Part shown: piece by piece, positions 21,001 through 24,000 of the stretch
Layout: the number at the start of each line of letters is the position of its first letter
How positions within the stretch are numbered: position 1 is the stretch's first letter
Assembly: GCA_046262595.1 (NCBI GenBank)
Contig: JBHEMM010000030.1
Span: 1-32,253 of the forward strand
DNA: 32,253 bases
Direction: 5' to 3'
From: Vulcanimicrobiaceae bacterium
GTDB taxonomy: Bacteria > Vulcanimicrobiota > Vulcanimicrobiia > Vulcanimicrobiales > Vulcanimicrobiaceae
Program-made: the position numbers

Positions 21001-24000
21001 CACGTTGACCGTACGGCCGTCGCAGACGAGCTGCGCGCCGGCGGCGATGCCTTGTTCGATGTAGTCCAGAATACGCTCGCGCGCCGCCGGCGTCACGACC
21101 GGGCCCATGTCGCTGCGCTCATCGCTGCCAGCGCCGATTTTCAAGTTGCCGATGCGCTCGATCAGTTTAGGAAGCAGCGCGCCGGCCGCATCGCCCACGC
21201 AGATGCTCGCCGAGATGGCCATGCAGCGCTGACCGGCGGAGCCGTAACCTGCAGACACCAGCGCGTCGGCCGCGGCATCCATGTCGGCATCGGGCATGAC
21301 GACCAAATGATTCTTTGCGCCGCCGAGCGCTTGAACGCGTTTGCCGTTCGCCGCAGCCGTTGCGTAGATCGCACGCGCGATCGGCGTCGAGCCGACAAAA
21401 CTGATCGCGTCGACTTGCGCATGTGCGAGCAGCGCGTCCACGGCTATTTTATCGCCGTGCACGACGTTGAATGCGCCGTCCGGCAAACCCGCGCGCGCGA
21501 GCAGCTCGGCGGCCAGCAGCGCGGCCGACGGATCGCGTTCCGACGGCTTGAGCACGAACGTGTTGCCGCAAGCCAGCGCTATGGCGAACATCCACGCCGG
21601 CACCATCATCGGAAAGTTGAAGGGCGTGATGCCGGCGCAAACGCCTAGAGGCTGGCGCAGCGAATAGGTATCGACGGAAGACGAGACGTTCTCGCTGAAT
21701 TCGCCTTTGAGTTGATGCGGCAGCGAGCAGGCAAAATCGACCACTTCGAGTGCGCGTGCAACCTCGCCCTGTGCGTCGCTCACCACTTTTCCGTGTTCGC
21801 TCGATACGATCTCGGCGAACTGCGCAGCATGTTCTTTGAGGAGATTGCGGAAAGCGAACAACACCTCGGCGCGCTTGCCCAACGGAGTGCGGCTCCACGC
21901 CGGAAACGCCGTGCGCGCCGCTTGCACTGCTGCATCGACATCCGCAGCGGAAGCGAGGGGCACTTTGGCCTGCACCTGACCGGTGGCAGGATCGAACACA
22001 TCGCCGAAGCGTCCGCTGCTGGGCGTTTCCAAGCGTCCGCCGATGAAATGGGCGATGGTGCGTACTTTCGTTGGAGCTTGCATCCCTACGTGTTCGACGC
22101 GTCGGCGGGTGGTCTTGCGAGAAGTGTCCAACGACGCGGCCGTGACGGACGCTGCGCCCACCCTTTGCTCGATCGGAAGCCACTCGGCCCTTGAAGTGGC
22201 ATACGGCGCGCGCGCCCAAGGCTTGCGAAACCTCGTCGTGACGGCGAGAGGACGCGAGAAAACGTACGCGCGGTACTACGCGAGTGCCGCCGCGCCGCCG
22301 CGCGGGTGCGTCGATGAAACGATCGAACTCGAGCGTTTCGCCGACTTGCTTCGCCCGGACGTGCAAGCGCAATTGCAGGCGCGCAAGGTGCTGTTCGTGC
22401 CCAACCGCTCCTTTGAAGTGTATTTGCACGAGCAGTACACGTACGATGAGATCGAAGCCGGCATGAAAGTGCCGGTGTTCGGAAACCGGCGCTTGCTGCG
22501 CGCCGAAGAGCGCGGCGAGGCGGATAATCAGTACGCGCTGATGCAGCGCGCCGGTATCCGGCATCCGCTGCAGTTTCCGTCATCGGATGCGATCGACCGT
22601 TTGGTGATGGTGAAGGCGCCGCACGCAAAAGTCACGTTCGAGCGGGCGTTTTTCTTGTGCGCCTCGCCCCAAGAATACCGCGACCAAGGCCGCCGCCTCA
22701 TGCGCGACGGCGTTCTGACGGCGCAAGGCCTTGACGGCGCGGTAATCGAGGAGTACGCGCTCGGTCCATCGATCAATTTGAACTTTTTCTTCTCGCCGGT
22801 TTTGAACGAACTCGAACTGTGCGGCACGGACACGCGCCGCCAAACGAATCTCGAAGGTTTCCGCAACGTGCCGCCTTCGGCGCTCGAATCGCTGCGTGCC
22901 GTCCCCATGCGCTTGGAAGAAGCCGGACATATTGCCGCCACGCTCACAGAGTCGATGCTGGAGAAAGCATTCGAGATGGGCGAGCGGTTCGTGCGCGCCG
23001 CGCGTGAGGCGAATCCTCCGGGCGTGATCGGCCCGTTCGCGCTGCAATGCATCATCATTGCCGGACCGCCGAAAGAATTCGTGTGCTACGACGTTTCGCT
23101 GCGCATCCCCGGCTCGCCCGGAACCCGCTACACGCCGTACTCCGCATACCGTTGGGGGCGCGATGTTTCGGTAGGCGAACGCATCGCGATGGAAGTGGTG
23201 TTCGCCCGCGAAGCAGGGCGAATCGCGGATATTCAGACGTAGGCGCAAGCGCGCTTCACAAGGCAAGAACGCCACATCTGCGAACTGCAGCACGCGGAGG
23301 TAGAATATGACTATAACGATGGGCGGAAATCCGGTCGAGCTGGACGGTCCGGACCTGCAGGTGGGCGACAAAGCGCCCGATTTCACGGTCGTCTCGGACG
23401 GCATGGGTGACACTAAAACGCTTGACGACGTCATCGAGCATGGCAGAAAGAACGCACTGCTGATCGTCGTGCCTTCTCTGGACACCAACGTGTGCTCGAT
23501 CGAATCGCAGAAGTTCAACGCACGCCTGGGCCAACTGCCCGCCGACACTGCGGCCTATGTCGTAAGCCGGGACCTGCCGTTTGCGCAGAAACGCTGGTGC
23601 GGTGCTCAGAGCGGCGGCGCAGTGCGGCTCGGCATGCTCTCCGACGCGCGCGATCACCGTTTCGGGCCTGCGTACGGCGTGCTCATCAAAGGTGTGGGCT
23701 TACTCGCGCGCACGGTGTTCATCATCGGTAAAGACAAAACGATCAAATACAAGCAGGTCGTGCCTGAGGTCGGCTCCGAGCCCGACTATGACGATGTCAT
23801 CGCAGCGGCGTCCAAACTTTCTTCCGCGGTCAACGCATAATCACAAAGAGCGGCCGAGCGGTGAGCCGAAAGGGCCGGCGGTGAACTCCCCGGCCCTTCC
23901 TTCAACCGTCTTTATCCTCGACTTCGGCGCGCAGTATAGTCAGCTGATTGCACGGCGCGTGCGCGAGATGAACGTGTATTGCGAGATTGTTCCGTACGAC

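Follow-up and report, generated by a model that had tools for sequence, protein, structure and literature searches.

A cluster II PurP-family gene and the internally deleted remnant of its cluster Ib partner in a bacterial purine locus

The window, that is, the whole stretch of DNA that was analysed (32,253 nucleotides of a contig of a Vulcanimicrobiaceae bacterium from soil), carries two genes of the PurP family, here called A-type (g01777) and B-type (g01786), both in a purine context, as the first-pass annotation had described. The features are as follows.

8022..10313, plus strand: purL (Pfam AIRS, AIRS_C and FGAR-AT_linker)
10280..11059, plus strand: purQ (Pfam GATase_5)
11056..11478, plus strand: PurS-like ORF of 140 aa between purQ and g01777 (a weak hit to Pfam PurS at 24.8 bits, cut-off 22.2)
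11475..11891, plus strand: g01777, A-type, cluster Ib / PurP II partner by sequence; 138 aa, with residues 1–60 and 263–340 of the full-length protein left
about 11654..11655, plus strand: deletion junction between …TTTCCC and GGCCTGTTC…, placed by DNA alignment with the same-genus genome G332
13004..22086, minus strand: reductive pyrimidine catabolism block (Pfam and NCBIfam), which separates the two purP genes
22124..23242, plus strand: g01786, B-type, PurP-family ATP-grasp gene assigned to cluster II / PurP III; intact, 372 aa (Pfam, residues and tree)
23307..23840, plus strand: tpx (NCBIfam thiol peroxidase, 157.6 bits)
frame 23581..25434, plus strand, likely start near 23857: guaA (Pfam GATase and GMP_synt_C)
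25425..26711, plus strand: purD (Pfam GARS_N, GARS_A and GARS_C)

The purL–purQ pair (8022..11059, plus strand) lies directly upstream of the truncated A-type gene, and tpx, guaA and purD (23307..26711), which are tightly spaced and co-directional, follow just downstream of g01786. The PurS-like ORF is also present in G332. The block between the two purP genes encodes a class-III aminotransferase, a CN-hydrolase, an amidohydrolase, PreA-like and PreT-like proteins and a methylmalonate-semialdehyde dehydrogenase, and the distance from the A-type to the B-type gene varies among the same-genus genomes. A scan for promoters and terminators yielded nothing above chance, with no terminator-like site beyond chance in the plus-strand intergenic regions. 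Contamination or mis-binning of the contig was considered, and was ruled out by the collinearity with three same-genus genomes.

Elsewhere in the genome, on contig C11, a full-length ORF of 520 aa with MGS and AICARFT domains encodes PurH, and the usual bacterial enzyme is thus indeed present. Its AICAR transformylase acts at the pathway step presumed for PurP, with 10-formyl-THF and a different fold. Neither formate–THF ligase (FTHFS) nor PurO was found in this genome (89.7% complete), nor was PurT above the cut-off (best 157 bits against 502). PurT, an ATP-grasp enzyme that, unlike PurP, acts on GAR, is the precedent for the replacement of folate-dependent formyl transfer by formate and ATP. 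With a PurN-like gene in the genome and PurT not found, the formylation of GAR appears to depend on folate, so that purine synthesis as a whole would require folate whatever PurP does.

For g01786, which starts with GTG inside a plus-strand frame of 21983–23242, both Pfam domains were reproduced above their gathering cut-offs, DUF1246 with 114.9 bits (residues 15–150; cut-off 25) and DUF1297 with 175.4 bits (residues 184–371; cut-off 23.8). Together they span residues 15–371, in agreement with the earlier description of a full-length PurP-family homologue. The closest solved structure is that of M. jannaschii PurP (MJ0136, 2r7k; 188.5 bits, residues 13–365), followed by P. furiosus PF1517 (2r84, 125 bits) and TK0431 (2pbz, 79 bits). 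MJ0136, of cluster Ia (PurP I), is the only PurP known to have a demonstrated formate- and ATP-dependent FAICAR synthetase activity. As in MJ0136, a two-domain ATP-grasp architecture extends over the whole length of g01786, and the formyl contacts His27 and Arg314 ('GSH' and 'SLR', aligned with the M. jannaschii residues) are retained, as are the phosphate contacts Ser94 and Ser266.

In contrast, the substrate-contact position 258 and the nucleotide loop differ from those of MJ0136. In the alignment with 2r7k, 'ITGNIP' of M. jannaschii (Asn258) is matched by 'EAGHIA' of g01786, so that the Asn of clusters Ia and Ib is replaced by His. The loop of g01786, 'VKAPHAKVTFERAFF', exceeds the cluster I loop by two residues; 'GARG--GRG' of M. 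jannaschii aligns with 'HAKVTFERA', which is without glycine and without the (K/R)GG(K/R)G loop (M. jannaschii 161–165). In addition, the NCBIfam equivalogs reached at most 226 bits against cut-offs of 482–603, the best being NF009780 with 225.9 against 556, a model on which P0157, a genuine PurP I representative, reaches 642.7.

The same division was seen in an alignment of 79 rows. All 26 rows of the canonical clade, including 7 of 7 A-type rows, have Asn and a 13-residue loop; the remaining 53 have His (50), Tyr (1) or are gapped fragments (2), and 7 of 7 B-type rows have His and the longer loop. In the tree, g01786 and its class relatives form a clade with 100% support within cluster II, and a branch of 100% support separates g01786 from the canonical clade; its titled archaeal cluster II neighbours include Archaeoglobaceae. 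His in place of Asn258, together with a replaced, longer and glycine-poor loop, is the signature of cluster II in the sections of Brown et al. (2011; PMC3261824) that treat it, where His27 and Arg314 are described as 100% conserved across both clusters. These results show, at the level of sequence, that g01786 corresponds to the cluster II (PurP III) half of the archaeal PurP couple, and not to the characterised enzyme type with which it had been equated. The best Swiss-Prot matches, to the Methanococcales type, reflect the content of Swiss-Prot and not orthology.

For g01777, Pfam detected profile positions 1–51 of DUF1246 and 98–186 of DUF1297, so that the middle of the protein is gone. A counterpart of 340 aa occurs in the same-genus genomes G332 and G361 at the same site, behind purQ and the PurS-like ORF. 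The full-length A-type protein matches PF1517 (cluster Ib / PurP II) best, with 334 bits against 290 for MJ0136, and the full-length relatives, like PF1517, retain the GAxGGKG loop and Asn258; g01777, unlike PF1517, is without residues 61–262, which include both. Through these full-length relatives, g01777 is best assigned to cluster Ib (PurP II), as the member of the couple that carries the internal deletion.

The two genes belong together beyond this genome. In the sister families, the A-type gene is followed by the B-type gene at a distance of 1–40 nt, and the two are adjacent in G055, G041, G071, G186 and G045. Among the best 80 of at least 587 relatives, found with a 10-row alignment as the query, a cluster I gene adjoins the cluster II gene in 60 of 80 loci, and 77 of the 80 are titled archaeal; this sample, obtained with a Bathyarchaeia-type query, is skewed to Bathyarchaeia and is no census. 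Of 401 genomes sampled from the phylum, 326 carry DUF1297, a proportion similar to the 363–367 of 453 given before, and all but 11 of these 326 have two or more matches. All positive genomes but one fall in a single class, in which the carriers number 290 of 296, 5 of 5 and 29 of 30 in the families f1, f2 and f3, respectively (324 of 331 in total), whereas 1 of the 69 phylum genomes outside the class is a carrier. The trait reported as phylum-wide is therefore class-wide. Similarly, the two PurP-family genes reported as paralogues are present as such, but they represent an ancient, ancestrally adjacent couple of cluster Ib and cluster II and not independent copies. In most genomes of the class there are two matches, which lie side by side in f2 and f3; the partner of g01786 in its own genome is the 138-aa remnant only.

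We consider the most probable explanation, at roughly 0.6, to be that g01786 and the deleted g01777 are the cluster II and cluster Ib halves of an ancient archaeal couple with a joint role. The A-type and B-type proteins would jointly convert AICAR to FAICAR by formylation with free formate at the expense of ATP, the cyclohydrolase domain of PurH would then close the ring, and the couple would serve as a route of free formate to purine C2. With formate–THF ligase almost missing from the class (2 of 61 genomes) and PurT not found in this genome, it is the couple that would carry free formate to this position. The formation of a hetero-oligomer by the two proteins is a published speculation; in a complex prediction with family alignments, the A-type and B-type proteins of G045 gave a median score of 0.31 against a mark of 0.32, with controls at 0.00, a result that weighs neither for nor against binding. 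The published assays of cluster Ib and cluster II proteins, as far as the sections of Brown et al. (2011) and Cruz et al. (2019) relay them, are negative: PF1517 and PF0421, each assayed singly, were inactive as FAICAR synthetases, and PF1517, although inactive alone, binds ATP and AICAR.

It is unlikely that the g01786 protein acts by itself as a FAICAR synthetase dependent on formate and ATP, as M. jannaschii PurP does, and thereby supplies a functioning by-pass of the PurH transformylase that needs no folate. The PurP fold is full length as far as sequence tells, the formyl and phosphate contacts are retained, the gene is intact, conserved at 79–82% amino acid identity within the genus and placed beside guaA and purD, and FTHFS is nearly missing from the class, all of which would fit such an activity. 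However, His stands in place of the carboxamide contact Asn258, another loop has replaced (K/R)GG(K/R)G, the equivalog scores stay far from their cut-offs, and PF0421, the sole cluster II protein assayed, was inactive as relayed by Brown et al. (2011) and Cruz et al. (2019). Moreover, cluster II genes nearly always accompany a cluster I partner, both in the genomes and loci surveyed and in the relevant part of Brown et al. (2011). The host also differs, since organisms of the MJ0136 type have one PurP and no PurH transformylase, and g01786 lies in a different clade from MJ0136. The features of g01786 are instead those of PF0421-type cluster II (PurP III) proteins, namely His258, the longer glycine-less loop, His27, Arg314, Ser94 and Ser266, the position in the tree, the pairing of its family with a cluster Ib gene and the purine gene neighbourhood. 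It is unlike the archaeal cluster II proteins in its bacterial host with a full PurH, in its identity of about 48–51% to the nearest titled archaeal sequences and in the broken partner.

A second reading, which we regard as equally doubtful, is that cluster II proteins make no FAICAR and act as a non-catalytic or regulatory subunit, or as an ATP-grasp ligase with another acyl donor or acceptor in nucleotide metabolism, the class retaining PurH because that enzyme does the actual work. PurH was found in 121 of 121 class genomes of at least 90% completeness, and its universality suggests that the couple is dispensable for this step or has another job. The changes in the substrate-contact residue and the nucleotide loop, seen in every cluster II row examined, point the same way, as does the inactivity of PF0421, for which Zhang et al., as cited in the portion of Cruz et al. 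(2019) that bears on it, proposed an alternative formyl source or another function. In addition, the B-type gene survives here without an intact A-type partner; as it remains intact (79–82% identity within the genus) while the A-type gene is deleted, the B-type protein may have a role of its own. Conversely, the formyl contacts are described by Brown et al. (2011) as fully conserved in both clusters, and the purine gene neighbourhoods are consistent here and in archaea. S. solfataricus, which has only the Ib and II couple, also argues for a FAICAR role, since its extracts put formate into IMP as relayed by Brown et al. (2011).

For the deletion in g01777, alignment of the DNA with G332 gave 1023 − 417 = 606 nt absent, in frame, corresponding to 202 codons, which confirms that the gene is internally deleted here and full length in relatives such as G332 and G361. 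CCGAA occurs at both breakpoints in G332, suggesting a microhomology-mediated deletion. Another same-genus genome, G366, was tried as a sign of A-type decay and rejected: its A-type gene has at least three frameshifts and a stop, but the B-type gene is frameshifted too, and sequencing error is likely in this assembly of 40 contigs and 79% completeness. That the 606-nt gap is an artefact of assembly or binning, or a minority variant in an organism with an intact couple, is quite improbable. The draft state of the genome (122 contigs, 89.7% complete) leaves room for it, the gene is full length in the same-genus genomes G332 and G361, and no public sequencing run contained more than 0.05 of the sampled words, so that none with this stretch was found for a look at the junction. 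The gap is, however, exactly in frame and internal to one contig, its flanks are collinear on both sides at 73–78% DNA identity to G332, and the motif common to the breakpoints in G332 is only 5 nt, too short for an assembly collapse.

Because the A-type protein here is without 202 residues including Asn258 and the glycine loop, the couple in this genome is probably crippled, leaving the formylation of AICAR to PurH. The working folate-independent, formate-fed by-pass that had been proposed is thus least secure in this very genome, where the deletion affects the partner whose active site is canonical.

The transfer from archaea to Vulcanimicrobiota that had been proposed was supported by nested trees. 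The A-type clade lies within a 12-row clade (SH-aLRT 96) together with the loci L107, L111 and L125, which alone among the best 80 loci show the A-type-then-B-type order. The B-type clade lies within a 27-row clade (SH-aLRT 98) with Micrarchaeota, Woesearchaeota, Methanosarcinales and Thermoplasmatota titles. Both genes are nearest to the same Woesearchaeota- and Methanosarcinales-titled genomes at about 50% identity, the nearest titled archaeal sequences to g01786 being at about 48–51%, and a bacteria-titled pair forms a separate clade in both trees. Joint monophyly of both archaeal sets was rejected by an AU test with full searches (delta lnL 41.2, p-AU 0.016) and with fast searches (delta lnL 66.7, p-AU 0.028), with groups named after the trees had been seen, fallible MAG titles and LG+G4 as the only model. 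The single-gene AU tests, on the other hand, did not reject a placement outside the titled archaea (p 0.33 for cluster II and 0.069 for cluster I). From these trees and the joint test, an archaeal origin of the couple is favoured. Both genes would have passed together, as a single unit, from an archaeon to the class ancestor, as suggested by the shared nearest genomes and the same gene order, and the identity of about 50% to the nearest archaeal relatives suggests that the transfer is ancient.

The contrary view, old bacterial inheritance or reverse transfer with retention in the class and a few other bacteria, could draw on the single-gene tests, on that modest identity and on Thermotogae- and Bipolaricaulota-titled MAGs that also carry the genes, but is very unlikely given a family in only 1 of 69 phylum genomes outside the class, the predominance of archaeal titles (77) among the best 80 related loci, the nesting of both genes in archaeal clades with identical nearest genomes and gene order, the joint AU result and the separation of the bacteria-titled pair from the class clade in both trees.

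PurP has been regarded as a signature gene of archaea. The claim that purP had been reported as confined to Archaea agrees with the survey part of Cruz et al. (2019; PMC6486802), which covers 1,403 complete genomes and finds PurP homologues in Archaea alone, with 0 of the 1,266 bacterial ones. Among the papers searched, none describes a bacterial PurP. Both genes are already named by automatic annotation in public records, as had been anticipated; the addition made here is the class-wide couple beside PurH. With a bacterial class that holds a PurP II/III couple beside PurH, the 'archaea-only' label falls. The class, which may include a cultured relative, also supplies non-thermophilic PurP II/III proteins.

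Overall, the archaeal couple has long been retained beside PurH, which suggests that it has its own role and is not simply redundant. A bolder form of the joint role, which we advance only tentatively, is that the Ib and II proteins constitute an obligate two-subunit formate- and ATP-dependent FAICAR synthetase that moved as a unit between small, DPANN-like archaea and several bacterial lineages, and that would be the sole route of free formate into purines in Vulcanimicrobiia. If true, this would explain why the couple has been kept beside PurH since the class began diversifying, the genome described here would represent a naturally occurring knock-out for the catalytic subunit, and Vulcanimicrobiia would provide the first mesophilic bacterial setting in which to settle the function of PurP II/III, open since 2008.

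The two purP genes of the window, g01777 and g01786, lie among the following genes.

Gene content of the window, in order
ribBA (frame 943-2358, +), ribH, an unassigned ORF and holA, the first genes of the window, from Pfam/NCBIfam matches
purB, purC (frame 6407-8029, +), purL, purQ and a PurS-like ORF, after holA
11475-11891 (+), g01777, truncated purP of 138 aa; then 11872-12984 (+), 370-aa ORF without family
13004-22086 (-), reductive pyrimidine catabolism block between both purP genes, methylmalonate-semialdehyde dehydrogenase at its end
22124-23242 (+), g01786, purP of 372 aa with an annotated GTG start, within the frame 21983-23242 (+); then tpx, guaA and purD
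26716-30011 (-), two Asp-protease-domain genes; then a Bax1-I gene and purF

The pyrimidine block appears complete, with PreT-like, PreA-like, dihydropyrimidinase-like, CN-hydrolase, class-III aminotransferase and CoA-acylating methylmalonate-semialdehyde dehydrogenase genes. The 370-aa ORF is hydrophobic at its N-terminus and unmatched in Pfam; it overlaps the last part of the truncated purP and is kept at the same place in G332, a genome of the same genus. The two neighbouring ORFs at 26716-30011 (534 and 562 aa) carry retropepsin-like Asp_protease_2 / gag-asp_proteas domains and are otherwise without family. The ribBA frame (DHBP synthase and GTP cyclohydrolase II) begins with an HTH_3 match (residues 12-56, 27.7 bits), which could mean a true fusion or a start called too far upstream. 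Behind its SAICAR synthetase domain, the purC frame holds a weak PurE-like (AIRC) stretch at about 7625-7852 (27.7 bits in Pfam, 30.2 bits in the genome search), and this frame may be a degenerate fusion of PurC with PurE; a proper PurE (216 bits) is encoded on another contig (C14:2607-3044), adjoining a PurK-like gene.

For g01786, the Pfam matches to DUF1246 (114.9 bits, residues 15-150) and DUF1297 (175.4 bits, residues 184-371) reproduced the scores of the first-pass annotation. The closest solved structures by sequence were M. jannaschii PurP (2r7k, 188.5 bits), P. furiosus PF1517 (2r84, 125 bits) and T. kodakarensis TK0431 (2pbz, 79 bits), and six of six NCBIfam PurP models matched, far under their cut-offs (best NF009780, 225.9 bits versus 556). 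In the excerpts consulted of Brown et al. (2011, PMC3261824) and Cruz et al. (2019, PMC6486802), PurP forms three main clusters: Ia (PurP I), with MJ0136, the sole member of demonstrated activity; Ib (PurP II), with PF1517; and II (PurP III), with PF0421, the latter two proteins being reported inactive. The same excerpt of Brown et al. (2011, PMC3261824) states that Asn258 (M. jannaschii numbering), the contact to the AICAR carboxamide, is invariably replaced by His in cluster II, that the (K/R)GG(K/R)G loop is replaced there by a loop two residues longer with few glycines, and that the formyl contacts His27 and Arg314 are conserved in both clusters.

In the HMMER alignment of g01786 to 2r7k, HAKVTFERA faces GARG--GRG and EAGHIA faces ITGNIP, and His27, Arg314, Ser94 and Ser266 are all kept. 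Compared with M. jannaschii PurP, g01786 keeps the formyl and phosphate contacts, whereas the carboxamide contact and the nucleotide loop differ. An exhaustive search of 1.84 billion representatives returned only 454 PurP family members at E <= 0.001, and 66 representatives of 300-430 aa from it were aligned with 13 sequences from the phylum Vulcanimicrobiota. In these 79 rows, the canonical clade carries Asn and a 13-residue loop in 26/26, all seven g01777 relatives included; the other 53 rows have His in 50, Tyr in one and gapped fragments in two, and the g01786 relatives show His and the longer loop in 7/7. The split between the canonical clade and the rest is clean. These results place g01786 in cluster II (hereafter B-type), and the Swiss-Prot best hits to methanogen PurP in the first-pass annotation thus do not speak for orthology with the characterised enzyme.

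For g01777, only positions 1-51 of DUF1246 and 98-186 of DUF1297 are covered in Pfam. Its full-length relatives match PF1517 best (334 bits), which points to cluster Ib (A-type). The DNA at 10800-12600 matches G332 and G361, also of the same genus, in two blocks that lie about 606 nt wider apart there. At the place of g01777, G332 has a 340-aa gene flanked, as in the window, by the PurS-like ORF and the 370-aa ORF; in the pairwise alignment (1023 versus 417 nt), 606 nt (202 codons) are absent from g01777 in frame, with the junction at about 11654/11655 and the pentamer CCGAA at both breakpoints in G332. This comparison agrees with the earlier description of g01777 as an internally deleted copy of a gene that is full length in relatives. 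The lost segment takes in the glycine-rich loop and Asn258. Among public sequencing runs, the largest share of this stretch found in any one was 0.05. In G366, of the same genus (40 contigs, 79% complete), both purP genes are frameshifted (loci L036/L039 and L139); decay of its A-type gene was set aside because the B-type copy is frameshifted too, and indel-prone assembly error is the reading adopted.

According to the excerpts of both papers (PMC3261824; PMC6486802), a genome with a cluster Ib gene always has one of cluster II as well, and vice versa, and the two are often adjacent. In the class Vulcanimicrobiia, A-type and then B-type genes are adjacent on one strand, 1-40 nt apart, in G055 (sister family) and in three genomes of another family (G041, G071 and G186), and the same arrangement is seen in G045, a genome of the window's own family. 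In the latter family, a B-type gene falls within the 1.5-kb flank in only 2/30 A-centred loci, and separation is therefore common there; within the genus, the spacer measures about 3 kb in G361, 10 kb in the window and 24 kb in G366. Across the class, identity is 72-90% for the A-type and 60-73% for the B-type, and 29-32% between the two. These results indicate that g01786 and g01777 are a couple rather than two stray paralogues.

Among 401 genomes evenly drawn from the phylum, 14 of them unpublished, DUF1297 was found in 326, and all but 11 of these had at least two matches, as read off the tally table. By family, the positives were 290/296 in the window's own, 5/5 in another of the same order, 29/30 in a third of the same class and 1/69 in all others. 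Therefore, the trait is class-wide, not phylum-wide as had been proposed. The sole PurP among those 69 genomes (G082:C110:10437-13961, locus L044; genome 72% complete, 460 contigs) is one lone cluster I gene that belongs to another lineage and shares 59% identity with an Iainarchaeum-titled sequence; it would stem either from an independent acquisition or from mis-binning.

To trace origin, a 10-row alignment of cluster II, headed by a Bathyarchaeia-type representative, was scanned against GTDB species genomes, giving at least 587 relatives, of which the best 80 were retained, a sample ordered by likeness to the query and no census. Among these best 80 of at least 587, 77 titles are archaeal and three bacterial; a cluster I gene adjoins the cluster II gene in 60/80 loci, usually in the order II then I. 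Among them, cluster I precedes cluster II, as it does in the class, only in L107 (Methanosarcinales-titled), L111 and L125 (Woesearchaeota-titled), which are the top scorers to A-type and B-type alike. The B-type clade (SH-aLRT support 100) falls, in the 92-row LG+G4 tree of cluster II, within a 27-row clade (98) that also holds sequences titled Micrarchaeota, Woesearchaeota, Methanosarcinales and Thermoplasmatota; in the 53-row tree of cluster I, the A-type clade (96) falls within a 12-row clade (96) together with L107, L111, L125 and the representative P0248. AU tests of cluster II alone (delta lnL 13.3, p-AU 0.33) and of cluster I alone (delta lnL 33.6, p-AU 0.069) did not reject a tree in which all titled archaeal sequences group together, with both the bacterial clade and the paralogue outgroup outside. 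With both constraints joined (82 rows), this alternative was rejected: p-AU was 0.028 in fast searches (delta lnL 66.7) and 0.016 in full searches (delta lnL 41.2), for groups named after the trees were seen, under a single model, with fallible MAG titles and unlabelled representatives left out. For both types, the nearest archaeal sequences are about 50% identical. The transfer, if such it was, would be older than the class radiation. The three bacterial titles (L112, L114 and L126; two 'Thermotogae' and one 'Bipolaricaulota' MAG) have an adjacent cluster II and cluster I couple; in both trees it groups close to Bathyarchaeia in a clade distinct from that of the Vulcanimicrobiota, and it may reflect additional transfers into bacteria or mis-binning of the contigs.

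No description of a bacterial PurP was found in the literature searched, and the excerpt of Cruz et al. (2019, PMC6486802) gives PurP in 0/1,266 bacterial genomes. Public records already name these genes, as the first-pass annotation had cautioned: NCBI calls A-type relatives 'formate--phosphoribosylaminoimidazolecarboxamide ligase' and B-type relatives 'DUF1297 domain-containing protein', and JGI calls both FAICAR synthetase.

This genome (89.7% complete) encodes the full PurH noted earlier, a 520-aa ORF with MGS-like cyclohydrolase and AICARFT domains, together with a PurN-like formyltransferase domain. PurO, formate-THF ligase and PurT were not found in it; the best PurT match (157 bits versus a cut-off of 502) is probably PurK because it adjoins PurE. 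PurH is present in 121/121 class genomes at least 90% complete (three unpublished), and thus the couple never replaces PurH here. Formate-THF ligase occurs in 2/61 class genomes, both of one genus.

The most likely reading, with a probability of about 0.6 for all its parts taken together and a lower one for its chemistry, is that A-type and B-type together act as a formate- and ATP-dependent AICAR formyltransferase, after which the cyclohydrolase domain of PurH would complete the pathway. The A-type keeps the canonical site, and the B-type retains the formyl and phosphate contacts with an altered carboxamide contact and nucleotide loop. The A-type is gutted in this genome, and the formate route is therefore probably disabled here. 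Cluster membership, pairing, distribution and gene context are observed; the chemistry, the joint action of the two proteins and the loss of function in this genome are inferred from them. Purine synthesis would still be folate-dependent at the GAR step. In the class, hardly any other way into the C1 and purine pools would be open to free formate.
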